Assembly: GCA_040753455.1 (NCBI GenBank)
Contig: JBFMEL010000001.1
Location: 5,810-69,809, forward strand
Direction of reading: 5' to 3'
Length of the DNA stretch: 64,000 nt
Source: Thermoplasmatota archaeon
GTDB lineage: Archaea; Thermoplasmatota; Thermoplasmata; SG8-5; JACRNV01
Shown: positions 2,218-52,874 of the stretch, one piece after another
Numbering within the stretch: position 1 is the stretch's first letter
Layout: every line of letters begins with the position of its first letter
Notes under the pieces: model-generated
What the model was told of the DNA's origin: nothing
The model's database searches: none
Seen by the model: only the letters and a program-made list of their open reading frames with translations
Made by a program: the position numbers and the translations under genes

Positions 2218-3513
2218 ATGGTGGCTGGTGACCGCATGAGACACGAGGCGGAATGGGTGCGCCAGCAGGTCAGGGAGCACCACAGATGGTTCAGCGCGTC
2301 CCTGCCCATGATCGCGTCCGAGAACCTGATCAGCCCGCTGGCGCGGGAGCTCATGATCTGCGACTTCTGCGATCGGTACGCGGAGGGGCTGCCAGGCGAG
2401 CGCTACTACCAGGGGAACGTATACGTGGACAAGGTGGAGCTGAAGGCGATAGAGCTGGCAAGGAAGCTCTTCAAGGCAGAGCACGCGGACGTGCGCCCGA
2501 TTTCCGGCACTGTGGCGAACATGGCGGTGCTCTTCGCTCTTGCAAAGCCTGGCGACACGATCACCACCACCGCACTCTCCGATGGGGCACATATCAGCAC
2601 TGCGAAGTTCGGTGCGGTGGGGCTGCGGGGGCTGAACCCTGTCACATACCCGTTCGACACCAGGGAGATGGTGATCGATATTGATGGCACTGCAAAGCTG
2701 CTCAGGGAGGTGAAGCCCAGGATCGCGCTGTTCGGGCAGTCTGTCTTTCTGTTCCCAGTGCCGCTGAAGGAGCTGGCAGATCTCTTCCAGGAGATCGGCT
2801 GCTATGTCTGGTACGATGCGGCGCATGTCCTCGGGCTCATCGCTGGCGGCAGGTTCCAGGATCCGCTGCGAGAGGGCGCGGAGGTGATCACAGGGAGCAC
2901 GCACAAGACCCTGCCAGGACCGCAGCACGGGATCCTGCTTGCGAATCCAAGGGACGAGAAGATGAGACGCAGCTTAGAGCGCGGGACGTTCCCCGGAGTG
3001 GTGAGCAACCATCACCTCAACGCAATGGCAGCGCTGGCAATCACACTCGCAGAGCACATCGTCTTCGGCGAGGCATATGCCGATCAGGTGATCAGGAACG
3101 CCAGAGCCCTGGGTCAAGCACTGCATGACGAGGGTTTCAAGGTCCTGTGCGAGCACAAGGGGTTCACAGCATCGCACACCATCGCCGTGGATGTGACGGC
3201 ACAGGGCGGCGGAGCGAGCGTAGCCCTGGACCTCGAGAGGGCGAACATCATCGTCAACAAGAACCTCCTGCCCTGGGACACCAAGCCCAAGAGCCCCAGC
3301 GGGATCAGGCTGGGCAGCCAGGAGCTCACGCGCCTGGGGATGAGGGAAGGGGAGATGAGGGACGTGGCAAGGCTCATCGGGCGCGTGGCGATAGACAGGG
3401 AGTCGCCTGAGAAAGTAAAGGAGGACGTGGCAGAGCTCAGGCGCTCCTTCAACACTATTCATTACTGCTTCACAGAAGGGATGGAGGCTTACAAATACCA
3501 CAGCATCGTGTGA
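2218..3513 (+). CDS. glyA: Serine hydroxymethyltransferase
   Basis: Motifs IASENLISP, GSTHKTLPGP and YQGNVYVD over the full 431 aa. Confidence 0.9.
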   Translation: MVAGDRMRHEAEWVRQQVREHHRWFSASLPMIASENLISPLARELMICDFCDRYAEGLPGERYYQGNVYVDKVELKAIELARKLFKAEHADVRPISGTVANMAVLFALAKPGDTITTTALSDGAHISTAKFGAVGLRGLNPVTYPFDTREMVIDIDGTAKLLREVKPRIALFGQSVFLFPVPLKELADLFQEIGCYVWYDAAHVLGLIAGGRFQDPLREGAEVITGSTHKTLPGPQHGILLANPRDEKMRRSLERGTFPGVVSNHHLNAMAALAITLAEHIVFGEAYADQVIRNARALGQALHDEGFKVLCEHKGFTASHTIAVDVTAQGGGASVALDLERANIIVNKNLLPWDTKPKSPSGIRLGSQELTRLGMREGEMRDVARLIGRVAIDRESPEKVKEDVAELRRSFNTIHYCFTEGMEAYKYHSIV

Positions 3514-14455: not shown

Positions 14456-14602
14456 GCGCGATTGGTAGGGGCAACCCCTACCGTTCTCTCTGCTGTTCTT
14501 GGGTTGTGTTTGGAGAAAACCACTTCGCAGAGACTATCTCATCGAGCGCACCCTCGATCAGATAGCGCCATCTTTATATCGGCAGGTGTCCTTTCCTCTC
14601 TC

Positions 14603-15112
14603 ATGTCCTCCGGTGCGCTCCTGGGGCGCTTCCAGCCGATCCATAAGGGACACCTGTGGGTGCTGCGCAAGCTCCTCTCTGAGTGTGATGAGGCGATAGT
14701 GGTGATAGGCAGCGCGCAGGCAAGCCATGAGCCTGACAATCCCTTCTCCGCAGGGGAGCGCTACGAGATGGTGAGGGCATGCCTCTCCAAAGAGGAGATG
14801 GCAAGGGTTGCGATCGTGCCGTTGGAGGACCTGAACCGCTACCCGCTGTGGGCGGCGCACGTGCGCTCCCGCTGCCCTTCGTTCCAGAGGGTCTATACCC
14901 GCAACCCGCTCACCGCCGCGCTGTTCAGAGATGCTGGCTACGAGGTCGTGGAGCACGAGCACCACCGCAAGGAGCTGTACTCCGGCACAGAGGTCAGGCG
15001 CAGGATGATCGCCGCAGAGCCCTGGAAAGAGCTGGTGCCCCCGGGGGCTGTGCAGGTCATCGAGAGGATCAGGGGCGAGGAGAGGGTGAGGAGGCTTGCC
15101 ATCCGCAGTTGA
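14603..15112 (+). CDS. nadM: Nicotinamide-nucleotide adenylyltransferase (archaeal NadM type)
   Basis: GRFQPIHKGH signature, the archaeal NMNAT H/TxGH motif. Start at the internal ATG 14603. Confidence 0.8.
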   Translation: MSSGALLGRFQPIHKGHLWVLRKLLSECDEAIVVIGSAQASHEPDNPFSAGERYEMVRACLSKEEMARVAIVPLEDLNRYPLWAAHVRSRCPSFQRVYTRNPLTAALFRDAGYEVVEHEHHRKELYSGTEVRRRMIAAEPWKELVPPGAVQVIERIRGEERVRRLAIRS

Positions 15113-16229
15113 GGAGCTGGTAAATCTTTTGCGCTCTAAAGGGATGCGAATAGCAGTGGCTGAATCTTGCACTGGTGGACTCCTCTCAAAGATGATCGTG
15201 GATGTGCCTGGGGCATCGCGCTGCCACATGGGAGGCGTGGTCGCATATCACAACGATGCCAAGACAGCACTCTTGGGGGTGAGGTCTGCCACCCTGGAGG
15301 AGCATGGTGCAGTATCCCCAGAGACAGCGATCGAGATGGCGGAGGGCGCAGCACTGAGGTTCAGGACTGAAGTGGGTGTCGGCACCACAGGCATCATGGG
15401 TCCCGAGGGCGGGAGCGCGGAAAAGCCTGTGGGACTGGGGTACGCAGCAGTGTGCATCAGAGGGACTGCCCATTCCAAAGAACTGAGGCTTCAGGGCAGC
15501 AGGTGGGAGAAGATGCAAGCGCTTGCCGGCGCAGCACTGCAGATGGCGCTCGAAGAGATCGAGGGACTGCCTGCGACCCCCGGGCACACCCGCGTGTTTA
15601 GAATCGGAGTGCTGGCTTCAGGAGGCGGCACAGACCTCCAGAGCATACTAGATGCATGTGAATCAGGCTACATACCAGGGAGGGTGGTCGTGGTCGTGAG
15701 CAACAACCCAGATGCGTATGCGCTGGAAAGAGCTAAAAAGCATGGTGCTGAAGCGCTTTTCATAGACCACAGGGGCAAAGAGCGGGTGGAGCACGAGCGC
15801 GAGGTCTGCGACGCCCTACAAAACTATGGGGTGGAGCTGATCGTGCTGGCGGGATACATGCGCATGCTCACACCATACTTCGTGGAGCGGTTCAGGAATA
15901 GGATCATCAACATCCATCCTGCGCTGCTCCCCCTCTTCGGAGGCAAGGGGATGCACGGGCTCCATGTGCATCAGGCTGTGCTGGATGCAGGATGCAAGCT
16001 CTCGGGCTGCAGCGTGCACTTCGTGGACGAGAGGATCGATGGCGGGCCGATCATAGCGCAAAGGTGTGTGGAAGTGAGGGATGGGGATACACCAGAGACC
16101 CTTGCAGCAAGGGTGCTGGAGCAGGAGCACATCCTCCTGCCCTGGGTGGTGAGGATGTTCGCAGAGGACAGAGTGCGCCTGGAGGGCAGGAAGGTGAGGA
16201 TAATCGAGGGCGAGAGATCCCAGCCCTGA
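15096..16229 (+). CDS. Fusion protein: N-terminal CinA-C/PncC (NMN deamidase) domain plus C-terminal PurN (phosphoribosylglycinamide formyltransferase) domain
   Basis: N-terminal IAVAESCTGGLLS (CinA C-terminal domain). C-terminal VLASGGGTDLQ...INIHPALLP...GCSVHFVDE..IDGGPII (PurN/formyl-transferase). TTG start with a GAGGAGG RBS. Confidence 0.7.
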   Translation: MPSAVEELVNLLRSKGMRIAVAESCTGGLLSKMIVDVPGASRCHMGGVVAYHNDAKTALLGVRSATLEEHGAVSPETAIEMAEGAALRFRTEVGVGTTGIMGPEGGSAEKPVGLGYAAVCIRGTAHSKELRLQGSRWEKMQALAGAALQMALEEIEGLPATPGHTRVFRIGVLASGGGTDLQSILDACESGYIPGRVVVVVSNNPDAYALERAKKHGAEALFIDHRGKERVEHEREVCDALQNYGVELIVLAGYMRMLTPYFVERFRNRIINIHPALLPLFGGKGMHGLHVHQAVLDAGCKLSGCSVHFVDERIDGGPIIAQRCVEVRDGDTPETLAARVLEQEHILLPWVVRMFAEDRVRLEGRKVRIIEGERSQP

Positions 16230-16498: not shown

Positions 16499-18418
16499 AT
16501 GGAACAGCAGACGGTAGCACTGATGCGGCTCGGTAAGAGTTCGATAGCGCTGGCTGTCCCTCCGTGGATCGTAGAAAAACTAAGGCTGGAGAAGGGCGCA
16601 GGTGTATATGTCTCGTGGGACAAGAGAAGCGGTAGGATAGCAGTCGAACCTGTCCATCGCGCAAAGGAAAGGCGCCCTCATGGCTACTGGAAGAACAAGG
16701 AGCACAGGATAAGGGCTGTGAGAGAGATGGTAGAAAAGACAGGGCTGCCGCCCTCGCGGATCACGGCCAAAGAGTTCATAGCAGCGGGTCTCCAGGCGGT
16801 CATCCACCACTGCGGTAACTCCCCTATACGGGCGCTGGAAGAGGCGGGCTACACCATTGCATATTATGGACCCGGCAAGAAGAAGCAGGTGCCACAGCGT
16901 CATTGGGACAAGCGAGAGAACAGGATAGCAGCGGTGAGGTGGCTGGTTGAACACCTCGGAAAGGCGCCCTCCCAGGTGACGGTGGATGATTTCCGGGAGT
17001 GCGAGCTCACCGGCCTCTTCGATCGCCGCATGACTGTGAGGGCAGCACTGCGGGAGGCGGGATACGATGTGCCCACCTGGCACAAGGCACCGCCCCATTA
17101 CTGGGACGACCGTGAACATAGGGTGAGGGCGATCAGGCGGATGGTGCAGCTTACTGGGGGACGTCCAGAGGCTATTACAAACAAGACGTTCAGGGCGTTC
17201 CACCTCACGGGTGTGCTCAGCCAATATTACAGGTCGATACGCAATGCCCTGAAAGACGCTGGTTATAGGGTCGAAGAGTTCTCAAAAAGGCCGCAGGGGT
17301 TCTGGCATCACCGCAAAAACAGGATCGAAGCGGTGCGCGAGATGGTGACGCGCTCCGGGAAGCCCATAGAAGAGATCACGGTGAACGATTTTCGTGAGGC
17401 TGGGATCATGTGCGTGATAAATGTATGCGGTTCCATACTAGCGGCTCTCGGTGAGGCAGGATATGCGATGAAGCCCTGGGAGCGGAGACCGATGCCCACG
17501 AGTTCTTGGCAGAGCAAAGAGCACAGGGTTGCAGCCACCAGATGGCTCGTGGAAAAGATTGGAAAAAAGCCGCTAGAGATCAACCAACGGGATTTCATGT
17601 CGCATGGTCTGGGGCGCCTGCTCAAAGCATACAGCAGAGAGCGCTGCGCCTCTTACGAGAGGGGGGATCTTTTCACAGATGAGCCGGGATACCTCCTCAA
17701 ATATCCCACACGGGTGACGAGGGCGCTCGTCGAAGCAGGTTTTGATATCAAGATCGAGGACCTTGCCGGCGCCCGGCGTTGGAAAGGGGGCGGGATCTCT
17801 AGGTACTGGAAGGAAAGGGAGCGCAGGATCGCAGTGATAAGAAAGGTGGTGGACGAGCTCGGCGATCCACGAAAGGTCTCAAGGCGTCATTTCATAGAGA
17901 GGGGGGTCACAGGGCTGCTGAAGTACTACGCCTCGTTGGAAGAGGCATTAAAAGATGCGGGATATCCACTGCACCCATGGGAACGTTCTCGGGTACCAAA
18001 CAGGTACTGGCTGGCGAGAGAGAACAGGATCAAGGCTGTCAGGTGGCTCGTCGAAAAGATCGGTGGCAACCCTCGAAAGATCATGAGGAGGGATTTCAGA
18101 GAGGCTGGGATAGAGGGGCTCCTCTCCCCTGCGGGCGGCGTACTCGGAGCTGTAAAGGAAGCGGGCTATGACCTGAAACCATGGGAATATGAGCACATGA
18201 GACCACCGAGAGATACATGGGCATCCAGAGAGAACAGAGCGGCTGCTGTGAAATGGCTGCTGGCGTCCCTGATGAAAGAGCCTTCGGAGGTAAGCAGGCG
18301 AGACTTTCGACTCCTTGGTCTCAGCAGGCTTGCGAACGAGTATGGAATACCGCGCCTTCTCGAAGAAGCAGGCTGCGAGGTAGATCGTGGAATGGGAAGG
18401 AAGGCGCCCGCGTCATAG
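16499..18418 (+). CDS. AbrB/SpoVT-like N-terminal domain protein followed by eight tandem ~66-aa repeats of an uncharacterised module
   Basis: N-terminal MEQQTVALMRLGKSSIALAVPPWIVEKL (swapped-hairpin-like). The repeat consensus is W..ENR..AVRWLVEK.GK.P..I...DF...GL.GLL.....AL.EAGY...PWE. An AT-rich promoter region and a G-rich RBS lie upstream. Confidence 0.7.
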   Translation: MEQQTVALMRLGKSSIALAVPPWIVEKLRLEKGAGVYVSWDKRSGRIAVEPVHRAKERRPHGYWKNKEHRIRAVREMVEKTGLPPSRITAKEFIAAGLQAVIHHCGNSPIRALEEAGYTIAYYGPGKKKQVPQRHWDKRENRIAAVRWLVEHLGKAPSQVTVDDFRECELTGLFDRRMTVRAALREAGYDVPTWHKAPPHYWDDREHRVRAIRRMVQLTGGRPEAITNKTFRAFHLTGVLSQYYRSIRNALKDAGYRVEEFSKRPQGFWHHRKNRIEAVREMVTRSGKPIEEITVNDFREAGIMCVINVCGSILAALGEAGYAMKPWERRPMPTSSWQSKEHRVAATRWLVEKIGKKPLEINQRDFMSHGLGRLLKAYSRERCASYERGDLFTDEPGYLLKYPTRVTRALVEAGFDIKIEDLAGARRWKGGGISRYWKERERRIAVIRKVVDELGDPRKVSRRHFIERGVTGLLKYYASLEEALKDAGYPLHPWERSRVPNRYWLARENRIKAVRWLVEKIGGNPRKIMRRDFREAGIEGLLSPAGGVLGAVKEAGYDLKPWEYEHMRPPRDTWASRENRAAAVKWLLASLMKEPSEVSRRDFRLLGLSRLANEYGIPRLLEEAGCEVDRGMGRKAPAS

Positions 18419-18569: not shown

Positions 18570-19478
18570 TTACAGGGCTGTGCGCTGGTACCCCAGGTAC
18601 TGCCCGCAGTTGCTGCCGATGCTGTTCTCTGCTGGGTTTCCAATGCTCACTATGACCTCGAACCCCTCTCCCCTCAAGCGCTCTGCGAGCGGCTCGGCTG
18701 TTGCTGGATCATAGGGGTCGATGCGCGATGCGATCCCATGCTTCATGGCTCTTGCAGTGGGGTTCACAGGGGTGAGCTTGATGATGAATCTCGCAGGGTC
18801 GAAGTGCATGCGCAGGACCTCTGGTTCTATGTGCACGCCCTCTGCCGCAGCGAAGTTCAGCGCGATCTTCCTGTCCCCTAACTGTACCCAGTCCTCGCCG
18901 TAGGCGGCGATCTCCTCCAAGCCCCATTTTCTCACAGGGATCAGGACCGCCCTTGCCTCCTCGGAGGTGGAATGGAGGGAGAACTGCAGTTGAAATCTCC
19001 CCTTGGCATAGATCTCTTCCTTGATGTTCAGCAGTTCATTGAAGAACGCCTCGCGTCCTGCAGGCGCGATCGTGGACAGGCATGGCAGCAGCCCGGGGGC
19101 GCTGTACCTATGCCTCAGCATGCGGAGGGCACGCAGCACCTCCCAGTTCATCGAGGGCTCGCCCACGCGCGCGAACTGCACCTTGAACTTCGATGCGGGC
19201 ACCCGTCCATCAGGATAGCGGCGCAGCACCATGTAATCCACCTGGGCAAGGATCTCCTCCGCGCTCATCGGGCCTCTGTAATCCCCCCCGGCATCGCAGA
19301 ACAGGCAGCGCACAGGGCAGCCGTGCATGGACGAGACTATGAGCACCCACTTCTCGTCCCTGGGAATCGGGAACTGGAGCGACTCTGCGAACTCTATGTT
19401 CATGCCACTATGCTCCAGCCTGCCCACGTAGACCTTGGCGATCTCTTCGATGCCATGCTCCGCAAGCACCTCTATCAT
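18570..19478 (-). CDS. Radical SAM domain protein
   Basis: CPVRCLFCDAGG (CX3CX2C) motif near the N-terminus. ~300 aa. Confidence 0.7.
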   Translation of the reverse strand: MIEVLAEHGIEEIAKVYVGRLEHSGMNIEFAESLQFPIPRDEKWVLIVSSMHGCPVRCLFCDAGGDYRGPMSAEEILAQVDYMVLRRYPDGRVPASKFKVQFARVGEPSMNWEVLRALRMLRHRYSAPGLLPCLSTIAPAGREAFFNELLNIKEEIYAKGRFQLQFSLHSTSEEARAVLIPVRKWGLEEIAAYGEDWVQLGDRKIALNFAAAEGVHIEPEVLRMHFDPARFIIKLTPVNPTARAMKHGIASRIDPYDPATAEPLAERLRGEGFEVIVSIGNPAENSIGSNCGQYLGYQRTAL

Positions 19479-20344
19479 CCGCTGCCCTCCAGATATTCGA
19501 GCGCTCTCACCGCTGCCGCGATCCCATCACCGCATGCAGTTGCTATGTGCCGAAGGCTCCCCAGGCGCAGATCCCCGGCAAGGAAGAGCCCAGGGACCCG
19601 CGTGCGCCCCTGCGGGTCAGCGGTCAGTTCCTCGGGCGGGATATCCAGCCTGGGCAGCGCGGGCACTCTCCCCACCGCGCACAGGATGTAGTGGACAGCA
19701 GCCCTTCCCTTCGTGCAGTCGAGGAGATATTCATCGCCATGGGGCTGCGCGCCGAGCACCTCACACTCAGTCCAGACCTCTATTGCATCAGAGCGTTTTG
19801 CTTTCTCGACCAGCGCGCGGTTGGCACGCAGCACCTTCCCTCTGTGAATGATCAGCACCCTGTATCCCCTGGACGAGAGCGTGAGGGCGTAGTCCAGCGC
19901 TGCCTCCCCACCCCCGATCACAGCGACAGACCTTCTCCCACCCTCGGCAGGCAACTCCTTCAACTCATAGTGGCATGGGAGACCTGGCATCTCCAGCCTC
20001 TTGGGCATCGTGCCCGTGGCCAGTATCACCGCATCCGCCATGTGCGAAGCGATGGGGGTTTCGATCTCGAAGCCACTCTGGGACCGCCGAATCTCTATCA
20101 CCTCCTCGCGCACCACACCTATCTCATGGCGGGCTAGCTGCTGCTCGATGAGCGCGCAGAACGCTCTGCCCTCAATCCCACCAGGGAAGCCCAAATAGTC
20201 CTCGACGAGATGCGCGTTGAGCGCCAGGCCTCCTATCCGCTCCTTCTCGAAGAGGAGGGGCTCGCAGCCTGCGCGCTTCAGATATATGGCTGCGGAGCAG
20301 CCTGCAGGTCCTGCGCCGACCACCGCCACCCTACCCATCCCCAC
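19475..20344 (-). CDS. Thioredoxin-reductase-like FAD/NAD(P)-dependent disulfide oxidoreductase
   Basis: VAVVGAGPAGCSAA FAD motif, a second Rossmann VAVIGGGEAA, and a C-terminal ATACGDG redox-active region. Confidence 0.75.
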   Translation of the reverse strand: MGMGRVAVVGAGPAGCSAAIYLKRAGCEPLLFEKERIGGLALNAHLVEDYLGFPGGIEGRAFCALIEQQLARHEIGVVREEVIEIRRSQSGFEIETPIASHMADAVILATGTMPKRLEMPGLPCHYELKELPAEGGRRSVAVIGGGEAALDYALTLSSRGYRVLIIHRGKVLRANRALVEKAKRSDAIEVWTECEVLGAQPHGDEYLLDCTKGRAAVHYILCAVGRVPALPRLDIPPEELTADPQGRTRVPGLFLAGDLRLGSLRHIATACGDGIAAAVRALEYLEGSG

Positions 20345-21053
20345 CCCCTATCATCCTCAGTAGATCCTCAGTGGAGACGATGTACGCGAAGCCGTGCGCC
20401 AGCGTAGCCAGCGCAGCCACGTGGAGGCGCTCGTTGCTCGTCGCTGTCCCATCAGCCACGAAATACACGTCATACCCGTGATGGAACGCCTCACGTGCTG
20501 TGGTTTCGCAGCACAGGTCTGTCATCACACCACAGATCACCACAGACCTCGCACCCAGGGCTCTCAGCCGCCTGTCTATATCTGTGCAGAAGAAGGTGCC
20601 GTAGAGGTGCTTGCTCAGCACCACTGTCCCTGCTGGTAACCGCATCCTGGGGTCGAGCGCCGCCCATTCGCTCTCCGCCTCCAAGCGCTCGCCCCACCAT
20701 CTGACAGTGGGGTCATTATCCGAGGATGCATATCGAGTTGCGAAGATCGGCAGCCCCTTATCCTCAAAGGCATCGATCAGTGCCTGAACCTTGAATATCA
20801 CATGCTGCGCGCTCTCGTGGTACGCCGGTGCCTCAGGGTCGAGGAAGTAGCGCTGCATGTCTATCACGAGCAGCGCAGGGTTGCAAGGTAGGGGAGGCGC
20901 TCTCATCCCCAGAAGCCCGGAGATCGCCTCGCGCCACTCCTCCATCCTGGGCTCGTAGTCCTCGTGGATGTCTGCATCTCGCCATTCCATGCTGTACTCC
21001 CACGCTTCCTGGTTTAACGAGCTGGCAGCGTAGAACAATGCTCGAACCTGCAT
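20331..21053 (-). CDS. Isochorismatase-family cysteine hydrolase
   Basis: ALLVIDMQ..F and VVICGVMTDLCCETTAR catalytic-cysteine region. The true start may be the internal Met. Confidence 0.7.
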   Translation of the reverse strand: MQVRALFYAASSLNQEAWEYSMEWRDADIHEDYEPRMEEWREAISGLLGMRAPPLPCNPALLVIDMQRYFLDPEAPAYHESAQHVIFKVQALIDAFEDKGLPIFATRYASSDNDPTVRWWGERLEAESEWAALDPRMRLPAGTVVLSKHLYGTFFCTDIDRRLRALGARSVVICGVMTDLCCETTAREAFHHGYDVYFVADGTATSNERLHVAALATLAHGFAYIVSTEDLLRMIGGGDG

Positions 21054-23919: not shown

Positions 23920-24501
23920 GCAAGCGCATAGCCCATTGATGATAAAAATCTATCGAGATATGGAGATCTGCCCTCTGTGCATAGTATCTCGCATTCCATG
24001 CAACGACCTTTGAGATGTGCATCTCCACCTGCAGGATTCCGTGCCCGACCACTCGTCACCAGCGCATTCCATGCAACGACCTTTGAGAGCAGGTCAACGA
24101 TCCCACGGGCAGGTTTCAGGGCAACATCTTTTTATAATCAGAACCCCTCTTCACCACGCTAGGCTCGACCGGGGCGCTCGGCGTGCCCTTATACACCGAA
24201 ATCGTCGATAGCGGGGGTGACAGCTGAGGGCGGCGTAACCTGCCCTGCACGCGCCCTGTGCTCGACTATGAGACCCTGTCCTGCCGGGCGGGTGGCGGCT
24301 CTGCGGCGCAGCCGGAGGGCGGCGCCCTCTGCCCTGATCGTGGGGAACGGGTCAGGCCCTGACGGGAGCAGCCTAACCACGGATTACCTGCGCTGGCAGG
24401 GTTGCGGGGTCGAGAAGAGCACAGACATCCGCGCGCAGGAAAGGGCGACCACCTCAGCGGCCTAGCTCCCATCATATAATCAACACCAGGCCGCTGATCA
24501 A

Positions 24502-27617: not shown

Positions 27618-27691
27618 GGGCCCGTGGGGTAGTCCGGACATCCTTTCGGCCTTCGGAGCCGATGACCCGAGTTCGAATCTCGGCGGGCCCG
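27618..27691 (+). tRNA. tRNA-Arg (anticodon TCG)
   Basis: Manual cloverleaf fold. Acceptor GGGCCCG/CGGGCCC. Anticodon stem TCGGC/GCCGA with loop CTTCGGA. T-arm CCGAG-TTCGAAT-CTCGG. Confidence 0.85.
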
Positions 27692-27729
27692 CTTACCCAC
27701 AACCCTTATAATCCACGCGCGCATACTAA

Positions 27730-28554: not shown

Positions 28555-30195
28555 TCACACCACGGGCACCAGCGAAAGTCTTCCTAGGGCGGAGGGGTCC
28601 TCGATGATGAGGGCGTGCAGCCCGGTGTACGGCTTCTCCCCGTACAGGAATGTCTGATCGCCCAGGCGCTCGACCTTGACATGGATGCGCGCGGTGGACA
28701 TGATGAGGCGCTCGGTGTCGGGTTCCGAGGTGAAGCCAATGAATATAGCGCCCACCTTCCTCACCGCGTAGATGAGCGGTATGAGTGAGCCTTCCACGCG
28801 CTCATCGTACATCTTGCTGAGAGTGTCTAAGGAAAGGAGGATGACGAAAGGCTGTTGGGAGCCTGATAGGGCATATTCGATCCCTTCCCAGCGAAAGTCT
28901 GTCTCCACATTCGTCCCTTCCAGCAGGATGGTGTTCTTTAGGATGTCTTTGCTGAGACAGGTGGTAGGCTCGAAGACCCGCACGCGCTCGTAGAAGCGCT
29001 CCTCCCCGATCTGGCTGCTCAGCATCTGATAGGCTGTATGCCCTGTGCCATGCCTGGGGGGCAAGATGCAGACCCCTCTCTCCTGGGAGACGAAGTTAGC
29101 CACCATCGTATAACAGAGATTGCTCACGATGCTCGGTGAGACGTTATCTGCGAACTCGAAGACACCGACCGAGCCGTGCGCGAGTCCCCCGATGAGAAAA
29201 TCTATGTCTGCAGAGCCTGTGGACACGATATCTCCGCTGAGATCCGGAATAGGCTTGAAGTGCCTGGGCTTTCCTTCGCCGGAGCCTGGATCACCGATGG
29301 AATACCTCGGGCACTCGAAGACGCTCATTCGGCCGTCCAAAAGGGTGTAGCACACGGTCGGCTCGGTGATCGGACAGCCGCGGAGCTTCTCGATCGTTAA
29401 CACCCTCAACCGCCTTCCCTTGTGATACTGGGAGTGAAGGCGTATCACGCCGTCACCCAGATAGTCGAGCTGCGACTTCTCCGCCTCTTCGAGGATGTAC
29501 ACGAGGTTGGCTCCCGAGTTCTCGACCAGGTCCCTCTGAATAGTGTTCACGAGGCGCACCTGCGCCACTCCGTACTTCTCACTGAGGGAGTTGATGCTGT
29601 CGAACACGATCAGAGATTTCTTTGGCAACGCGCGCTCAACCACGTCATAGGCCCACTCGATCTCTGGGAGGTCGGACGACAGGTCAAGTGTCAACACCCC
29701 GTTCACCAGATCCCCGCGGTCCCCCTCTGCGGTCACGTCCGCCTCGCCCTCTATGATCTGGCCTTCGAGCTTCCTCAGTCCTGATCGATCCACTGCCACT
29801 GGCATGGTCTCGGTCCCCCTCAGCACCTTCAGGAGCGACTTCGCCTCCTGTTTGACAGCCTCGGGGAGACGCGCCTGGCATGTGCCCTTCCTCCCTCCGG
29901 GATGCAGGGCGTTCAGAAAACCACGTCCCCCGGCAATCAGGTCGTTCCTGCGCACCTTCTTCGCCAGCCATGGAAACTGGTTGTATAGACTCCTGTCAGT
30001 CACCCTCCCTGAGATGTAGTGCGTCGCCTCGATCCCCGAGAGCTCCTCGATGAGCTGCAGCGCGAACGTGGTCTTACCAGTGCCCGCATCCCCCTTTACT
30101 AGCAGGGAGTGCCCGCCAGGGCTCTCGAAGAAATCGAGTATCTGCTGAGGGATCTGTCCCTGGGCTGTTCCTCGCTTAGAACGCATTATACTCAA
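28555..30195 (-). CDS. KaiC/RecA-superfamily ATPase with two RecA-like domains. The second domain lacks a Walker A.
   Basis: Domain 1 Walker A GDAGTGKTTFALQ. Domain 2 has IGGLAHGSVGVFEFADN in the P-loop position. Confidence 0.8.
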   Translation of the reverse strand: MSIMRSKRGTAQGQIPQQILDFFESPGGHSLLVKGDAGTGKTTFALQLIEELSGIEATHYISGRVTDRSLYNQFPWLAKKVRRNDLIAGGRGFLNALHPGGRKGTCQARLPEAVKQEAKSLLKVLRGTETMPVAVDRSGLRKLEGQIIEGEADVTAEGDRGDLVNGVLTLDLSSDLPEIEWAYDVVERALPKKSLIVFDSINSLSEKYGVAQVRLVNTIQRDLVENSGANLVYILEEAEKSQLDYLGDGVIRLHSQYHKGRRLRVLTIEKLRGCPITEPTVCYTLLDGRMSVFECPRYSIGDPGSGEGKPRHFKPIPDLSGDIVSTGSADIDFLIGGLAHGSVGVFEFADNVSPSIVSNLCYTMVANFVSQERGVCILPPRHGTGHTAYQMLSSQIGEERFYERVRVFEPTTCLSKDILKNTILLEGTNVETDFRWEGIEYALSGSQQPFVILLSLDTLSKMYDERVEGSLIPLIYAVRKVGAIFIGFTSEPDTERLIMSTARIHVKVERLGDQTFLYGEKPYTGLHALIIEDPSALGRLSLVPVV

Positions 30196-30363
30196 TCAGG
30201 TTGGTATGCACTATATAATTCTTTTCATCTGGTTATCAGATGATTTTCCTGGGGCGATCGTCGCTCACCGTATCTATCGCCAGCACGGTGATACGCCGGG
30301 ATGATATTTGTCGTGCAGCGCACCTCCACATGCCCACCACTACCATTTTATATCCGGGCGCGG

Positions 30364-31563
30364 ATGCTTTTCCGTATGGAGCAGGGGGTCGCAGGTCTGC
30401 GCATCACGGTCGCCAGCAGGATACTACTCCATCTGCAGGATTACTGGTTGTGCGCAGATAGGCCGGAGTTCCCGCTGTCGGTCACCCAGCGGGGGATCGC
30501 GGATGCCACAGGGGTGCTGCTGACCCACGTGCCGAGAGCGCTGAAGCAGCTGAAGAAGGAAGGGCTCGTCCGGGAAGCCTCAGGGCATGTGGAAGGGGAG
30601 CGCAGGCGGTACAAGGTCTATTTCCTCACTGAGGAAGGGCTGCGCGTCGCTAAGGGGCTGAGGAGCTCGCTCCTGGAGACCATCGTGGCGTTCCGGGAGG
30701 ACGGAACTGTGAAAGATGCACCCCTTAAAACCCTCTTGGAGCGCATCCCCAGGGCGACGACTGGGCAGCTCATCTCCCGCATGGATGGGGAGGGGATCAT
30801 AGACCTCGGGACGAGGGCTGTAGCGCAGGGGAAGCGCACGCTGGACCAAGCACCACCTCTCGAAAAGATCATCGGAAGATCAGAGGAGATGAGGTACATG
30901 CGGCAGGCGCTGGAATCCCAGAGATGCAGGCTCCTCGTGGTCCTGGGCTCTCAGGGGGTGGGGAAGAGCGCGACAGTGCGCAGCTTCATAGAAGAAGAGT
31001 GCCCTGAGCTCGGGGCTGTCTGGATAGACCTAAGGTCTGCTCCCGGGCTCACCCATGTCTGGGAGGGGCTGAAGGCTCACTTCCACGCATTGAATGAGGC
31101 GCAGACCCCTGAAGAGATGGGGCGCGACCTCGCCCGCGCGCTCGAAGCCTCCAGGGATATAGTGGTCTTCGACGGCTACTGCGATGTGCCCGAAGCTACA
31201 GTGGAGTTCTTCGCAGCGCTGGTGGACGCGCTCCACACCTGTCGCGGTGGCGCAAAGGTGCTGATGACGATGCGCGAGGAGACCCCCTCCTACAACAGGT
31301 TCTACGAAAGGAACGATGTGGAGTCCGGACTGGTGGAGGAGATCCATCTTCGAGGCCTGGGTGCCGAGGACTCCGCCGCCCTCCTGGGTGCCGAGGGGAT
31401 AGATCCCGACGCCCTGCGCAGGATATACCTCATGACCAAGGGGAAGCCCCAGACCCTCAAGCTCATCGCCGCCGGGGACATGGAGCGCCTGAAGGCCACC
31501 ACGCGCCTCACCACGGAGGAGATACGCCTCCTGCTCTTCTTGAAGAATGTGAAGGGGGGGTGA
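30364..31563 (+). CDS. Winged-helix DNA-binding domain fused to an archaeal-ATPase-type (AAA+/ORC-like) P-loop domain
   Basis: N-terminal wHTH (ADATGVLLTHVPRALKQLKKEGLV). Walker A LGSQGVGKSA and Walker B IVVFDGY. Divergent from the KaiC-like gene. Confidence 0.65.
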   Translation: MLFRMEQGVAGLRITVASRILLHLQDYWLCADRPEFPLSVTQRGIADATGVLLTHVPRALKQLKKEGLVREASGHVEGERRRYKVYFLTEEGLRVAKGLRSSLLETIVAFREDGTVKDAPLKTLLERIPRATTGQLISRMDGEGIIDLGTRAVAQGKRTLDQAPPLEKIIGRSEEMRYMRQALESQRCRLLVVLGSQGVGKSATVRSFIEEECPELGAVWIDLRSAPGLTHVWEGLKAHFHALNEAQTPEEMGRDLARALEASRDIVVFDGYCDVPEATVEFFAALVDALHTCRGGAKVLMTMREETPSYNRFYERNDVESGLVEEIHLRGLGAEDSAALLGAEGIDPDALRRIYLMTKGKPQTLKLIAAGDMERLKATTRLTTEEIRLLLFLKNVKGG

Positions 31564-34432: not shown

Positions 34433-35503
34433 TTAGGACACGATCTCGTCCATTCTGCCTTTATCTATTCCTTCCTTAATTTCCTTGGCGATCCTCCGGC
34501 CTGTGGAGTATCCTGGCTCTATCAGATCGCTGTAGGGCGAGCCTGTGATGTGCACGTTTGTGCCCGCCACGATTCGGGCTGAGATCTCGAAGACCACGAA
34601 CTCCAACTGGTCTGTGACGATCGTTTCGAGGCAAAATGGTCCAATCATCCCGCCGAAGAGCTCGAAGGAGCGCTCCACCACCCTTTCACCCATCTCGAGC
34701 ACATTCGGCAGCAGCGACTCCCTTATGACCACTGGCACGTTCCCAGTGACCACGAAGGTGGGGTAGATGTCCAGGCGCTTCAGCTCCTCCTGTGCCCCCA
34801 GCTTGTACATCTCGTCCACGTTGCTCTCGTCCCTCCTGTCGAGCCCGAGCAGCTCTAGAGAGCCTTTTGAGAGCCTGTACCCCCTGTCCTTGAGGGGGGA
34901 GTAGAAGTAGTGGAGATAGTACCTTGTGCCCAGCACGTACTCCTGAATGTGGTATTTCTGGGTGTGATCTATCCCCAGTTTGAAATCGTGATAGTCCTTG
35001 GCGATGAAGAACCCGCGCCCACCTTTCGCACCATGATACTTCACCATCACCGGGCAGTCGATATCCTCCGGGCGCTCGATAAGAGCAGGCATCCTTATAC
35101 CTGCGGAGGTGAGCCACTCCCGTTCCTTTGTCCTGTCCGATTCCCAGTCCAGCACTGCTCGATTTCCGAAGGTGGGCACCTCAAGATTCTGAAAATTCTT
35201 TGCCCCGAAATACTCCACGAAAGAGCCATGGGGCACGAGGATGCAGTTCCGTGCTCGCAGCGCCTCCGTTCTCTCACCCAGTTCCCGCCAGTTCGCCAGC
35301 TCGAAGAATTCGTCAGGCTTCCCTTTGGGAAAGGCGTCGTAGTACCTCGGCGGATGTCCTATGCTCAACCCTAAGGTTCGAAACCCCTCCCTGCGGGCAC
35401 CATCGAAGATCTGAAGGCTGGTGTGAGAGCACACAGTGGCGATCGTGATCTCTTCCATGTCGTACCGCGCCAATATCTCCTTGATCTTCGCCTTAGGATC
35501 CAT
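34433..35503 (-). CDS. purP: 5-formaminoimidazole-4-carboxamide ribonucleotide synthetase (PurP, ATP-grasp)
   Basis: N-terminus ITIATVCSHTSLQI matches the archaeal PurP signature. Confidence 0.85.
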   Translation of the reverse strand: MDPKAKIKEILARYDMEEITIATVCSHTSLQIFDGARREGFRTLGLSIGHPPRYYDAFPKGKPDEFFELANWRELGERTEALRARNCILVPHGSFVEYFGAKNFQNLEVPTFGNRAVLDWESDRTKEREWLTSAGIRMPALIERPEDIDCPVMVKYHGAKGGRGFFIAKDYHDFKLGIDHTQKYHIQEYVLGTRYYLHYFYSPLKDRGYRLSKGSLELLGLDRRDESNVDEMYKLGAQEELKRLDIYPTFVVTGNVPVVIRESLLPNVLEMGERVVERSFELFGGMIGPFCLETIVTDQLEFVVFEISARIVAGTNVHITGSPYSDLIEPGYSTGRRIAKEIKEGIDKGRMDEIVS

Positions 35504-41418: not shown

Positions 41419-44400
41419 ATGTATGGCGATGCAGATAAAGGGATCATGTCAGATTCCGCCACCGGGGCGAAGGGCAAGAAGGGGCAGCAGAAGCACTCCA
41501 GGAAGATCGCGGCGCTCGCTGCAGTTATCGACGCCGCAAGGGCAAAGTTAAAGGAGACGGTGCAGAAACATTCTGGGAAGATCGCAGCACTCGGCGCTGT
41601 TATCGCCGGCGCGGCTGGCGGGTTCGGACTTGTCGGGCTCTTCACTGCAGCGCTGCCGTTCCTCGGTCACAGACTGGTCGGGGAGTTCGCAGCGGCTGTG
41701 GGCGTAGAAGGCCTTGTGAAACTCGGTGAGCGAGCAGTCACAGGCGAGCCTCTGAGAAAAGAGGACCTCAGGACGCTGGAGGAGGCGCAGAGCCGATTGA
41801 TGGAGTTGCTCGCAGACTCAGCGACAGCTACGCAAAACCTGCATGCTCTTTGCGCGCAACTTTTGCAGGAGGAGCAGCTCACCCAGCACCTGACGAGCGA
41901 CATGATCAAAAGCCTTCGCGACGATATAAATAAGCTCAGCGCAGAAAATCAGGAGCAGTTCTCTGAGATCATCGGAAAGCTCGACGCGCTCCAGGAGAAG
42001 CTCGAAGAAGTGCACGAAGAGGTGCGGCGCTGCGGGCTCGTCAGCTTGAAAGAGGAAGTCTCCAGCATCAGCCGGGAGGGTCTAGAAGAGCAGCACAAAA
42101 GATTCGATGAGTATTTTCTGGGCGGAGTCCCGTGGGGCGTAATCGTATACGAGATCGATGTGCGGCGCGAGGTCACGACAAAAATCATCAACAGATTGAA
42201 GGGGGGCAACAGCATGTTGCTCCTCGGCAAGAGTGGCTCCGGAAAGAGCACGATACTGAAGCGCGCGGCGTATCTGTTGTTTCTCGAAGGATACAACGTG
42301 TTTTACAACTGCGGCAGTATCGATGTGGAGCGCGCGTACAGGTTGCTCACGGAGGAAGAGGGTACAAAGGTCGTGGTTGTGGACGATGCTGATCTTCGCT
42401 GGGACGCTATCAAAGCACTGCACGAATGCTGCATAGAGCATGGGCGTACTGACATCGTGATGCTCTTAGCCGAGCGCACGGAGCGGTTCAAGCACGGCAC
42501 GGCAGGCACAGCTATCAAAGAAGAAAAATTGACACTCACCCGTAATGATGTAAAGGAGCTTTGGAGGTCCACTGGTGATGTTGTGCCAGTAAGAGATGAT
42601 GTGATGGACTTCCTCCTCCAGTGGTGCGGCGATGAGTATATCCTCGCCAAGATATACTCGCTGGGTTACACGGGCGATTCAGAAGAACGATTGGAGGAAC
42701 TGGCGCGCACACGGTATGAGGCGCTGAGGGAGTTGCCCCGAAACCTCAGGACACCACTATTTCCTATAGCATGCATGGCTGCGTACGATTGTGCGCTACC
42801 GCGAAGGGTGTTCGAGAGGTTAGGGCATGATGCTGCGGACCTTGAGGAGTTGGCGAGGCGCGGGTATGTATCTATCGAGGACAGTGCCCTGCGGGGCTAC
42901 CACCCGGTGATTGCGAAGAGGTTTCTCCGCTGCTATCTTGAAGGGGGGGCATATGATTTTGTAGATTGCGTTGTGAACCGCATCCTGCCGCGGCTCGGCG
43001 AGGGCGAAGAGAAAGAAGCTGACGCGGGACTGTGTTTCTCGCTGGGAACAAACATTGCTGTGGAGCAAGAAGATAGGATAGAAAAGGACAAAAAAGTGCT
43101 CGAGGTTGCATTGAAATCTCTGGACAGATGTCTCGAACTGACGCCCGACCACGCGGAGGCGTGGAACAACAAAGGCAACACGCTCGATAGCATGGACCGC
43201 TACGAGGACGCGCTCGTTGCTTATGATAAGGCGCTCGCCATCAACACGCAGTTGGCGGAGGCGTGGAATAACAAAGGCACCACACTCCACCATATGCAGC
43301 GCTGTGATGAGGCACTCGTCGCTTATGATATGGCACTTGCACTCAACCCAGACTATGTAGAGGCATGGAACAACAAAGGCACTCTGGTCTCCAACATGCA
43401 GCTGCATGATGAGGCACTAGCCGCTTATGATAAGGCACTTGCACTCAACCCCGACTATGCGGCGGCGTGGAACAACAAAGGTTTCATGCTCATACGCATG
43501 GAGCGCTATGATGAGGCGCTTGCCGCCTGCGACAAAGCGCTCCAGCTCAACTCGCGGTATGTGGAGGCGTGGAACAACAAAACCCTCGCGCTCGCCCACA
43601 TGCAGCGTTGTGATGAGGCGCTTGCCGCCTGCGAGGAAGCGCTCCAACTCAATCCACGGTATGCAGAGGCGTGGAACAACAAAGGCTTCACGCTCGCATG
43701 CATGGAGCGCTATGATGAGGCACTAGCCGCTTATGATAAGGCGCTCGAATTCAACCCGCAACTTGCAGAGGCCTGGAACAACAAAGGCAACACGCTCGCA
43801 CACATGCAGCGGTACGAGGAAGCGCTCGCCGCCCATGATAAGGCGCTCGAACTCAACCCGCAGTTGACGGAGGCGTGGTACAACAAAGGCAACACACTCA
43901 ACCAAATGCAACGCTATGATGAGGCGCTCGCCGCATACGACAAAGCGGTCGAACTCAATCCACAATTTGCGAAGGCGTGGAACAACAAAGGCCTCACGCT
44001 CGCACACGTGCAGCGCTACGAGGAAGCGCTCGCCGCTTATGATAGGGCGCTCGCCATCAACCATCAGCTTGCGGAGGTGTGGTACAACAAAGGCCTCACG
44101 CTCGCACACGTGCAGCGCTACGAGGAAGCGCTCGCCGCCTATGATAAGGCGCTTGCCATCAACCCGCAGTTGGCGAAGGGGTGGGGCGCGCGCGGGCTTA
44201 CGGAGCTGAGTATGGGGAGGTACGAACATGCGGCGTTTGATTCTGCATGTGCGCACTTTCTGACACGCCTTGGGATAGGGCAGGAGAGATTGTTGGAGCC
44301 AACCGCGCGTCAGTTCATGCAGGCTAGCGATGCGCTGCGCGGCACGGGTGCGTTCCACGATGCAGCCATCCTTTACGCTGTGATGGCTTTTGAGAAAAGG

Positions 44401-44691
44401 GCTGAAGTTGCTGCGCCATTGTGGCGTGAACGTGAGAAGATCACACACATACTTGCCCGCTGCATGCTGTACGATATCGTGGGCGAAGCGCTGACCGAGA
44501 TTAAGCCGGCGATGGATGAGGAGCGCAAAGTAATCGAATGGTATGCCCGCAGCTTGGCGGAGAAAAAGGTCCATGAGGAGTTCCGGGAATACCTTTGGGC
44601 GCTGGTGCGCGGCGACGCGCGGCGCGACGCGGCGTTTGCACTTGCCACATTGTACCTGCTCGTGGAAGAAGGCGTGATGGTTTCGCCATAG
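41419..44691 (+). CDS. STAND-type P-loop NTPase: N-terminal TM/coiled-coil region, central NTPase and ~13 C-terminal TPR repeats
   Basis: Walker A LLLGKSGSGKSTILKRAAYLL and Walker B VVVVDDAD. Hydrophobic segment AALGAVIAGAAGGFGLVGLFTAALPFL. The repeated AWNNKGxxLxxMxRYDEALAAYDKAL module is a TPR. The true start is possibly the Met at 41446. Confidence 0.75.
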   Translation: MYGDADKGIMSDSATGAKGKKGQQKHSRKIAALAAVIDAARAKLKETVQKHSGKIAALGAVIAGAAGGFGLVGLFTAALPFLGHRLVGEFAAAVGVEGLVKLGERAVTGEPLRKEDLRTLEEAQSRLMELLADSATATQNLHALCAQLLQEEQLTQHLTSDMIKSLRDDINKLSAENQEQFSEIIGKLDALQEKLEEVHEEVRRCGLVSLKEEVSSISREGLEEQHKRFDEYFLGGVPWGVIVYEIDVRREVTTKIINRLKGGNSMLLLGKSGSGKSTILKRAAYLLFLEGYNVFYNCGSIDVERAYRLLTEEEGTKVVVVDDADLRWDAIKALHECCIEHGRTDIVMLLAERTERFKHGTAGTAIKEEKLTLTRNDVKELWRSTGDVVPVRDDVMDFLLQWCGDEYILAKIYSLGYTGDSEERLEELARTRYEALRELPRNLRTPLFPIACMAAYDCALPRRVFERLGHDAADLEELARRGYVSIEDSALRGYHPVIAKRFLRCYLEGGAYDFVDCVVNRILPRLGEGEEKEADAGLCFSLGTNIAVEQEDRIEKDKKVLEVALKSLDRCLELTPDHAEAWNNKGNTLDSMDRYEDALVAYDKALAINTQLAEAWNNKGTTLHHMQRCDEALVAYDMALALNPDYVEAWNNKGTLVSNMQLHDEALAAYDKALALNPDYAAAWNNKGFMLIRMERYDEALAACDKALQLNSRYVEAWNNKTLALAHMQRCDEALAACEEALQLNPRYAEAWNNKGFTLACMERYDEALAAYDKALEFNPQLAEAWNNKGNTLAHMQRYEEALAAHDKALELNPQLTEAWYNKGNTLNQMQRYDEALAAYDKAVELNPQFAKAWNNKGLTLAHVQRYEEALAAYDRALAINHQLAEVWYNKGLTLAHVQRYEEALAAYDKALAINPQLAKGWGARGLTELSMGRYEHAAFDSACAHFLTRLGIGQERLLEPTARQFMQASDALRGTGAFHDAAILYAVMAFEKRAEVAAPLWREREKITHILARCMLYDIVGEALTEIKPAMDEERKVIEWYARSLAEKKVHEEFREYLWALVRGDARRDAAFALATLYLLVEEGVMVSP

Positions 44692-46382: not shown

Positions 46383-46763
46383 CCCTGCAGAGCATCCTCC
46401 GTGGTAACGTTCCCTTGGGAGGAGAGCTGAGCTCCCAGTTCCGCGCATGGGGACTGATATACCGTACGAACAACCAGGTAGGGCTCCGAGGTGCTGCTCG
46501 GTGCGAAACTCTAAGGTCTGGATCGATCAAATACAAGGGGTAGATTGTTTGGACATGAGATGCCTTTACATGGCATTCAACATAGAAAAATGGACTGTGC
46601 AGGTCTGAAGTGCAATCAAAATTACGAAAAGCCCGGGTGTGAATAACAATGCTGCGAGTGCTCAGGCGAAAAACTTTTTATGGAAATGGTGGATATCCGC
46701 ATCCCACGCCCCAGCGATGGATGGGTGCATGACGCTGCACCTATGGCTGGAGGGAGGGCAGGG

Positions 46764-47210
46764 ATGGCAGAAGCGATCAGAGAGGCTGTCAAGGACGAGT
46801 GCCGTGATCTCCTGCAGGGAGCGGTCACGAAGCCAGAGCGCAGTCTCGTCGAGGAGTTGCGGGAGATGTGCGCCGAGAACCCATACGCCTGCTATCAATG
46901 TGGCACCTGCTCTGCTGGCTGCCCGTACATCGAGGAGATGGACCTCACACCTGATGAGGTCATAAGGCATGTGGTCATGGACAAGAAGGAGGTGCTGGGT
47001 TCAAAGACGATATGGCTCTGCAGCTCCTGCTACACCTGTGCCGAGCGCTGTCCCAGGGACCTGAACATCACCAAGATCATGGAGGCACTGCGCCAGATCG
47101 TGCTGCGCAAGAACGTGGATGCAACGAGCATCCCCTGCATCGCAGAGGAGAAGAGGAGGGGGATACCGCAGATCGCGTTCGTATGCCTCTTCAGAAAGAA
47201 CATCGGATGA
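46764..47210 (+). CDS. hdrC: Heterodisulfide reductase subunit C-like (2x[4Fe-4S])
   Basis: CYQCGTCSAGCP and CSSCYTCAERCP. Start placed at the Met with a GGAGGGA RBS. A TATA-like element lies at ~46670. Confidence 0.75.
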   Translation: MAEAIREAVKDECRDLLQGAVTKPERSLVEELREMCAENPYACYQCGTCSAGCPYIEEMDLTPDEVIRHVVMDKKEVLGSKTIWLCSSCYTCAERCPRDLNITKIMEALRQIVLRKNVDATSIPCIAEEKRRGIPQIAFVCLFRKNIG

Positions 47211-47211
47211 G

Positions 47212-48090: not shown

Positions 48091-48112
48091 ATCATGACAG
48101 GGAGGGGGCTCA

Positions 48113-50507: not shown

Positions 50508-50518
50508 GGTGCAGAGCC

Positions 50519-50779
50519 ATGATCACCGTATTAGAGGACTGGTGCAAGGGCTGCGCGATCTGCATCAAGCGCTGCCCGCGCGACGCGCTGGAGCTCTCCA
50601 CCAAGCTGAATAAGAGGGGCGTGTATCCCCCCAAGCTCAAGGAGGTGAACGACTGCAATTACTGCCGCCTCTGCGAGCTGCTCTGTCCTGATTTCGCGCT
50701 CAGTGTGACCCCTGACGAGGGGTACGTGCCCAAGGATTTCAAGAAGCTCATAATCGGAGGGATTGCAGGTGAGGTATAA
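50519..50779 (+). CDS. korD: 2-oxoacid:ferredoxin oxidoreductase delta subunit (2x[4Fe-4S] ferredoxin)
   Basis: CKGCAICIKRCP and CNYCRLCELLCP. Confidence 0.75.
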   Translation: MITVLEDWCKGCAICIKRCPRDALELSTKLNKRGVYPPKLKEVNDCNYCRLCELLCPDFALSVTPDEGYVPKDFKKLIIGGIAGEV

Positions 50780-50804
50780 GCGAGATCCTGAGAGGATCAG
50801 GAGG

Positions 50805-52825: not shown

Positions 52826-52874
52826 CAGGGAGCAAAGGTCTGTGTCTCGGGTGCTGCACGCAGGGGGCGATGAA

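Follow-up and report, generated by a model that had tools for sequence, protein, structure and literature searches.

Why would an enzyme of nicotinamide adenine dinucleotide (NAD) salvage reside in the same polypeptide as an enzyme of purine synthesis? This question is raised by a gene at positions 15096–16229 on the forward strand of a 64,000-nucleotide stretch of DNA from a Thermoplasmatota archaeon (assembly GCA_040753455.1, contig JBFMEL010000001.1, positions 5,810 to 69,809), the whole of which we refer to as the window. An earlier note on this DNA had described the gene as a single frame that combines a PncC-type CinA domain, related to nicotinamide mononucleotide (NMN) amidohydrolases, with a complete PurN, a glycinamide ribonucleotide (GAR) formyltransferase, and that directly follows and overlaps a gene for a nicotinamide-nucleotide adenylyltransferase (NMNAT). 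As explanation it had offered either that the formyltransferase domain uses a different substrate or that NAD and purine metabolism are coupled in their regulation. The results presented here bear out the description of the gene and speak against both explanations. The NMN deamidase and GAR transformylase reactions have neither substrates nor products nor cofactors in common, and we consider it likely that the gene encodes a bifunctional enzyme with these two activities, which was born by the loss of a stop codon between operon neighbours.

The cinA(pncC)~purN frame encompasses 377 codons between a TTG start at 15096 and a TGA stop at 16227–16229, and its translation contains no internal stops. 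The continuity of the frame and the recurrence of the same architecture in 11 protein clusters, described below, rule out a frameshift or hidden stop codon that would divide it into two genes, which was the first of two objections considered in the earlier note. In the NCBI annotation, the identical protein (P0001) is 366 residues long, which implies a start at TTG 15129, 11 codons further downstream. Since residues 2–11 are conserved among homologues and since the TTG start follows the sequence agggtga and overlaps with the end of nadM in all five of the five loci compared, TTG 15096 appears to be the better-supported start and 11 N-terminal residues are probably missing from the public gene model. 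The named public records of fused proteins are annotated as 'phosphoribosylglycinamide formyltransferase' only, and the searchable literature offered no relevant description of a fusion of PurN with PncC or of CinA with a glycinamide ribonucleotide enzyme. We found no paper on this domain architecture, which is built from known kinds of enzymes.

The C-terminal half of the protein (residues 169–362, encoded at 15600–16181) carries the features of a phosphoribosylglycinamide formyltransferase. It is matched by the Pfam family Formyl_trans_N (PF00551, residues 169–351, E 9.4e-51) and, at residues 169–362, by the NCBIfam PurN equivalog TIGR00639 with 204.2 bits (cut-off 150.1), whereas the models of other formyltransferases stay far under their thresholds, including the models TIGR00655 (116.3 bits vs 285.95) and NF004684 (118 vs 223) of PurU, a formyl-THF deformylase with a regulatory domain at its N-terminus, Fmt (49.7 vs 201.5), ArnA (25 vs 777) and the sugar N-formyltransferases. 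Its best matches in the Protein Data Bank (PDB) are all GAR transformylases, among them 3AUF (E 1.3e-57). The NCBIfam cut-offs and the PDB ranking rule out an identity as Fmt, PurU, ArnA or sugar formyltransferase and remove the second objection of the earlier note, that the domain might be a formyltransferase other than PurN. The catalytic triad N106, H108 and D144 of Escherichia coli PurN aligns with Asn272 (15909–15911), His274 (15915–15917) and Asp315 (16038–16040). Two local deviations recur in other PurN sequences: the loop SGGGTDLQ (pattern SGxG(S/T)xLQ) contains an Asp where the E. coli protein has an Asn, a variant that is widespread in pattern matches, and a five-residue GGKGM insertion follows the HPALLP motif, as in many bacterial and archaeal PurNs with the pattern LPxFGGKGM. 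In a tree of PurN halves, the domain clusters with ordinary stand-alone PurNs of Thermoplasmata. The match to the equivalog, the retained triad and this grouping argue against the alternative substrate that had been proposed for the domain.

No second purN was found within the window, which also encodes serine hydroxymethyltransferase (SHMT, 2218–3513) and, on the reverse strand, purP (34433–35503), the archaeal formate-dependent synthetase of FAICAR, the formylated product of 5-aminoimidazole-4-carboxamide ribonucleotide (AICAR), with its domains DUF1246 and DUF1297 and a score for NF009781 of 588.7 bits, below the cut-off of 603. Purine synthesis in this organism would thus seem to rely both on the folate-dependent PurN and on a formate- and ATP-dependent formylation of AICAR, and the presence of SHMT and purP fits a purine-making organism that uses folate-type one-carbon carriers.

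The N-terminal half (residues 5–153, positions 15108–15554) is assigned to the CinA C-terminal domain by Pfam (PF02464, E 6.7e-47, 159.4 bits vs a cut-off of 23.5) and by the NCBIfam model TIGR00199 of the PncC domain (137.7 bits vs 68.9), while the equivalog for full-length NMN amidases, NF002975, remains below threshold (114 bits vs 212). When searched alone, this half retrieved as best matches mostly bacterial stand-alone CinA proteins at about 50% identity and 128–145 bits; the match P0287 can be recognized as bacterial from the Rho and pgsA genes in its context. For the roles of catalytic and substrate-binding residues in both halves we relied on published work (PMC5384747, PMC3855486). 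In an alignment to the Agrobacterium tumefaciens protein AtCinA (2A9S, 97.9 bits), residues S24, C25, S41, Y51, K56, T98 and R136 correspond to S31, C32, S48, Y58, K63, T105 and R145, whose mutation abolishes or lowers NMN deamidase activity and which define a Ser/Lys dyad (PMC5384747). The putative dyad of the window protein is thus formed by Ser24 (15165–15167) and Lys56 (15261–15263). Active NMN deamidases are distinguished from inactive family members by eight blocks, P-I to P-VIII (PMC3855486), of which the window protein retains P-I (AESCTGG), P-II (GAS), P-III (YHNDAK, a YxNxxK sequence), P-IV (GAVS), P-V (MAEGA, MAxG) and P-VII (KPVG), together with the first Arg of P-VIII. Across the 11 fused sequences, 25 residues of the CinA half are invariant, including G39, S41, Y51, K56, T98, G99 and R136, and the AESCTGG block is intact in each fused sequence that covers the region.

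Between both halves resides a linker of 15 residues (154–168, positions 15555–15599, ...EIEGLPATPGHTRVF). In an AlphaFold (AF2) model with a mean predicted local distance difference test score (pLDDT) of 84.5, the protein forms two folded domains, with the CinA half folding confidently, whereas confidence is low at residues 157–167 and pLDDT falls below 50 at residues 162–165. Since the predicted TM-score (pTM) is only 0.57, the model contains no confident inter-domain interface or packing. In Foldseek searches, the N-terminal half superimposes on A. tumefaciens CinA (2A9S) with a TM-score (TMt) of 0.85 and a root mean square deviation of 2.4, and the C-terminal half on 3AUF with a TMt of 0.89 and 48% identity in the structural alignment, with PurN structures overall at 0.87–0.92. 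A solved chain spanning both domains was absent among the Foldseek matches.

The fused architecture is found in 11 clusters at 90% identity (P0001–P0011), whose members are 56–100% identical to the window protein. Orthologues P0002–P0011 share 56–65% identity over 89–98% of the query. The 11 clusters originate from independent NCBI metagenome-assembled genomes (labelled as Thermoplasmatota, Euryarchaeota or Methanobacteriota archaeon), from JGI metagenomes and from ENA, and their linkers vary in sequence and length. To define the reach of the fusion, we searched 1.84 billion representatives at 50% identity exhaustively and examined the best 150 matches. Among these, P0004 is the only representative that spans both domains, and the others align with the query from residue 140 onward, in its PurN half only, with PurN scores of 167–249 bits. 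Because stand-alone CinA proteins score 128–145 bits and PurNs 167–249, an independent CinA-PurN fusion would rank near the top, with a typical bacterial one expected to reach at least about 270 bits and thus rank 2; none was found among the best 150 matches. In a collection of species-representative genomes, no fused locus was among the matches listed (at least 600). As far as these searches reach, the fusion does not extend beyond one small clade of Thermoplasmatota. PurN has found other partners elsewhere, with an RNase H/RVT_3 domain preceding it in P0214 and P0268 (two 50%-identity representatives), a GNAT acetyltransferase following it in P0171 and a GNAT_C-like N-terminus in P0207. Across the longer PurN proteins among the best matches, the N-terminal domain is a different one or none can be recognised. 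As PurN is also joined to RNase H and GNAT, its fusions need not signal a functional link.

The origin of the fusion becomes apparent in its closest unfused relatives. The nearest stand-alone PurNs, P0012 and P0013, are 71% identical to the PurN half of the window protein and are encoded in loci (L004 and L090) of the order nadM-cinA-purN, in which a cinA of 159 codons and a purN of 209 codons are separated by 15 nucleotides. In both loci (L004 5980–6003, L090 1302–1322), the stop codon of cinA, the spacer and the ATG of purN are all in one frame. We compared these split junctions codon by codon with the fused junctions of L001 and L003. The split junction of L004 reads ...GAT AAG GTT AAA AGC GCG TAG CGG GAT TCG GGG TCG ATG GCC CGG GAG TTC CGC..., and the fused junction of L003 reads ...GAT AGG GTT AAA AAC CCC GAT GCG AAT CCC GTT CCG ATG AGC GGA GAA TTC AGA..., so that the stop codon of L004 (TAG) and L090 (TAA at the same position) corresponds to a GAT in L003 at an identical count of codons. 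The linker is, by this comparison, derived from the former C-terminal tail of CinA, its stop codon, the 15-nucleotide spacer and the start of PurN. The former initiator of PurN is kept as internal Met throughout P0004–P0011 (consensus PMAGxFRIG); in the subgroup formed by the window protein, P0002 and P0003, this Met is replaced and the length of the linker has drifted. Read-through of the stop codon in L004 or L090 would yield the fusion as a protein product. In some Thermoplasmata (Methanomassiliicoccales), TAG is read as pyrrolysine.

The relationship between split and fused forms was analysed in a bootstrapped, distance-based neighbour-joining tree of PurN halves (about 200 columns). In this tree, all fused forms and P0012/P0013 are united in one clade with 96.5% bootstrap support, and the split P0012/P0013 group with the fused P0004–P0011 and not with the window subgroup (81.5%). 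Given this grouping, the state would have changed at least twice, either by two fusions or by one fusion and one fission. Repeated switching is expected, since a single point mutation toggles between both states.

The gene neighbourhoods place the two parts of the fusion in different contexts. nadM is located directly upstream of cinA in L001, L003, L004, L090 and L093, with the fused order nadM-[cinA~purN] in L001 (GCA_016214785.1) and L003 (GCA_043799545.1). On a Methanoplasma (Methanomassiliicoccales) contig (L093, encoding P0335), the order is lonB-nadM-cinA-thiF with no adjoining purN, and lonB also lies a short distance upstream in L001 and L004. This arrangement strengthens the view of NMNAT and CinA as an NAD-related unit, as the earlier note had put it, and, because the pair recurs without purN in a second lineage of Thermoplasmata, it suggests that nadM-cinA predates the arrival of purN. 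Conversely, neither cinA nor nadM was found within 6 kb of purN in the 80 nearest loci among the PurN matches listed from species-representative genomes, and purN in other Thermoplasmata adjoins PCNA (L006, L007), NAD kinase (L008, L091) or folD-purH (L009). The adjacency of purN to nadM-cinA is, on these loci, limited to the fusion-bearing clade. In conjunction with the unfused sister genes, which retain an in-frame stop codon and a 15-nucleotide spacer, this restriction to a single clade disfavours the proposal of a regulatory coupling between NAD and purine metabolism. In L008 (3588–5624) and L091 (3811–5633), purN divergently adjoins the NAD kinase gene, with an NAD synthetase gene located 3.6 kb further upstream in L008, which constitutes a second, independent case of purN near an NAD gene, possibly by coincidence.

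In the window, the fusion gene is preceded by nadM (14603–15112, forward strand, 169 residues), which encodes an archaeal NMNAT of the family PF01467. Its translation carries the motifs GRFQPIHKGH (HxGH) and SGTEVRRR (SGTxxR) and scores 201 bits with NF002243 (cut-off 127) and 180.9 bits with TIGR01527, 0.3 bits short of the cut-off of 181.2. At its end, nadM shares 17 nucleotides (15096–15112) with the fusion gene, which begins there with its TTG; this agrees with the adjacency and overlap described previously, and equivalent overlaps with a TTG start are found in L001 (17 nucleotides), L003 (8), L004 (11) and L090 (8). The overlap suggests a translational coupling of both genes. A TATA-like box read from the sequence (TTTATAT, 14573–14579, forward strand) is located about 27 nucleotides upstream of the ATG of nadM, and similar CTTT(W)AT boxes precede this codon by 25–30 nucleotides in L001, L003 and L093. 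This element is a putative archaeal promoter and, combined with the overlapping stop and start codons, suggests a single leaderless and translationally coupled nadM-cinA~purN transcript.

Taken together, these features outline a plausible course of events. In one lineage of Thermoplasmatota, purN would have joined an older nadM-cinA pair at its immediate downstream end in such a way that the stop codon of cinA, a 15-nucleotide spacer and the ATG of purN shared a frame, and a single change from stop to sense codon, or its reverse, would then fuse the two genes or separate them again. The product would be composed of two ordinary enzymes, connected through a flexible stretch of about 15 residues, whose activities we infer from sequence. 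The PncC-type half, probably a dimer like other PncCs, would convert NMN and water into nicotinic acid mononucleotide (NaMN) plus ammonia, and NaMN would in turn serve as substrate for the adjacent adenylyltransferase on the route to NAD. Acting as a standard folate-dependent GAR transformylase, the PurN half would formylate GAR with 10-formyl-tetrahydrofolate as donor of the formyl group. Three activities would in this way be expressed from one leaderless transcript, in which nadM is presumably coupled to the fusion gene during translation. The fusion itself would most likely be neutral or mildly useful, by ensuring a fixed 1:1 co-expression of both enzymes.

Several observations weigh against this reading. 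In the CinA half, block P-VI reads TGIMGPEGG instead of TGI/VAGPxGG (A101M), block P-VIII has RWEKM where the consensus is Rxx[V/I]R, with its second Arg replaced by Met, and the substitutions Y43C and F44H adjoin block P-II. In a classification from 2013, only the MocF domain was found in archaea (PMC3855486), and no characterised archaeal PncC turned up among the literature found. In addition, NAD genes lie on both sides of purN in L003 and L004, with nadM and cinA upstream and nadA about 0.5 kb downstream, the fused state has been kept down to about 56% identity in at least two subgroups, and the window subgroup, having lost the former start Met of PurN, would produce PurN only as a fusion, unless the GTG at 15588–15590 initiates translation. 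These latter points would be expected if the fusion was selected because the linkage of NAD recycling to purine synthesis is advantageous, for example by coordinating dosage or because dimerisation of CinA stabilises or regulates PurN. The active site of PncC is assembled across a homodimer from residues of two subunits (PMC3855486), and the fusion would thus bring two PurN domains together. We nevertheless regard a selected coupling as unlikely, in light of the absence of any compound shared between both reactions, the coexistence of split and fused forms one codon apart within a clade, the limitation of the gene adjacency to this clade, the lack of a confidently predicted contact between the domains and the unrelated partners of PurN elsewhere.

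A change of function, where the CinA half would deamidate a compound such as AICAR or the formyltransferase half would act on a substrate other than GAR, appears distinctly improbable. AICAR resembles NMN in carrying an aromatic carboxamide on a ribose 5-phosphate, and purP, whose product formylates AICAR, resides in the same window. Moreover, the window protein deviates at eight CinA positions that are invariant in its relatives (T35V, Y43C, F44H, V57T, R86A, A101M, R140M and A143L), and CinA-family members with other activities exist, as exemplified by E. coli YdeJ-type proteins (PMC3855486) and an NCBIfam model for a 2-oxo-tetronate isomerase. However, all residues known from mutagenesis to be important for NMN deamidation are present (PMC5384747), the PurN half passes the cut-off of the PurN equivalog and of no other formyltransferase, and the unique substitutions at columns invariant in relatives are equally distributed between both halves (8 in each), which looks like the signature of a long branch and not of decay in a single domain. 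As its conserved partner, cinA has nadM and not a purine gene, and a deamidation of AICAR to carboxyaminoimidazole ribonucleotide (CAIR) would run the pathway backwards. Just as improbable is a version in which the fusion was selected either for the action of the CinA amidase on a ribonucleotide amide of the purine pathway, such as AICAR, or for a coupling of NAD salvage to the first formylation of purine synthesis through the dimer, although, if true, it would explain the location of purN inside a nadM-cinA...nadA cluster.

It is very improbable that one half is an inert and decaying passenger of an accidental fusion, with only PurN, or only PncC, being functional. In each pair compared, divergence is faster in the CinA half than in the PurN half, with 52% against 75% identity between the window protein and P0002. 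In P0002 (L001, 6001–7131), the Asn of the YxNxxK block is replaced by Asp (N53D, AYDDHAK), and its close relative P0003 retains the Asn; the same change is found in the E. coli paralogue YdeJ, which is inactive towards NMN (PMC3855486). Against a decay stand the 25 CinA residues that are invariant over 11 fused sequences, the confidently predicted fold and the absence of any frameshift or truncation inside the domain. Finally, the source is a metagenome-assembled genome and relatives carry split versions of the gene pair, as would suit a sequencing or assembly error that removed a stop codon or frameshift between two genes, but since independent projects yielded the architecture in 11 clusters, whose linkers have diverged and vary in length, such an artefact, or a chimeric assembly, is hardly conceivable.

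The proposed bifunctional enzyme can be compared to known systems containing either of its parts. With single-domain PncC proteins (E. coli YgaD/PncC and AtCinA), the window protein shares the fold, the Ser/Lys dyad and most P blocks; it differs from these proteins by its archaeal origin, the added C-terminal PurN and the described replacements in P-VI and P-VIII. With stand-alone PurNs, such as the structures from E. coli (1CDE) and Symbiobacterium toebii (3AUF), it has in common the match to TIGR00639, the Asn/His/Asp triad and the fold, whereas it carries a CinA extension of 165 residues at its N-terminus. Two-domain CinA proteins, in which a COG1058/MocF ADP-ribose pyrophosphatase is combined with PncC (Thermus thermophilus, 4CT8/4UOC), similarly join PncC to a second enzyme, with both activities serving the recycling of pyridine nucleotides (PMC4246079, PMC3680494). 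In the window protein, the partner is instead a C-terminal enzyme of purine synthesis and the MocF domain is absent; a MoCF_biosynth/COG1058 domain was not detected by Pfam, and NF001813 and TIGR00200, models of full-length CinA-type proteins, match with their C-terminal parts only and below cut-offs. PurN is also the C-terminal module of the eukaryotic trifunctional GARS-AIRS-GART (4ZYT/1MEO), whose human representative is among the PDB matches, but in this protein the joined enzymes catalyse steps of the same pathway, whereas the partner in the window protein is an NAD-salvage amidase. A closer parallel to the proposed origin is provided by the RNase H-PurN (P0214, P0268) and PurN-GNAT (P0171) proteins, where PurN is linked to an unrelated domain, presumably by fusion of neighbouring genes, in other lineages and with no CinA.

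The surroundings of the fusion gene contain additional features. Downstream (16499–18418, forward strand), a gene encodes a protein of 639 residues with about ten degenerate repeats of about 60 residues (W..KE.R..AVR.LV...G..P..I...DF...G) and a weak match to the Pfam family HNH_repeat ('homing endonuclease associated repeat'); no tandem repeat was found in its DNA, and it occupies the place of a small open reading frame and nadA in L003 and L004. About 4 kb downstream of the fusion, an isochorismatase-family hydrolase (20331–21053) and a thioredoxin-reductase-like flavoprotein (19475–20344) are encoded on the reverse strand, and on a contig from a distant Thermoplasmatales member (L009, 6389–7979) the same pair is likewise found in the vicinity of purN. 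An assignment of this hydrolase as the nicotinamidase PncA was rejected, as its NCBIfam score is 33 bits against a cut-off of 174. Elsewhere, the window contains an archaeal signal recognition particle RNA (24157–24467, forward strand, 153 bits) and a tRNA-Arg (TCG, 27618–27692, forward strand), with no rRNA in its 64 kb. A GvpD-like/KaiC-type P-loop ATPase (28555–30195, reverse strand) is divergent from a gene combining a helix-turn-helix domain with an AAA_16 ATPase (30301–31563, forward strand), with no further gas-vesicle genes seen among the open reading frames scanned in the window, and a STAND-type NTPase (nSTAND_NTPase5) of 1090 residues with a long array of tetratricopeptide repeats is located at 41419–44691 (forward strand). 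A long run of redox genes on the forward strand (46680–63644) encodes CCG-domain and ferredoxin proteins, an FAD_binding_2 flavoprotein, subunits of a 2-oxoacid:ferredoxin oxidoreductase (50763–53414), large HdrA-like Fer4/Pyr_redox proteins and a NuoE-like 2Fe-2S thioredoxin-like ferredoxin domain.

In light of the described results, the locus offers a clean natural case in which two genes fused, or one gene split, through a single in-frame stop codon. Both states survive in one clade, and the old initiator Met is still preserved inside the linker of P0004–P0011. It also calls for caution in the inference of function from 'Rosetta-stone' proteins, as the fusion in this case does not imply a shared pathway. 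The location of nadM beside cinA in two lineages of Thermoplasmata suggests a role of PncC-type NMN deamidases in archaea, and the naming of the fused proteins as PurN only would conceal this likely NAD-salvage activity in metabolic reconstructions of these organisms.

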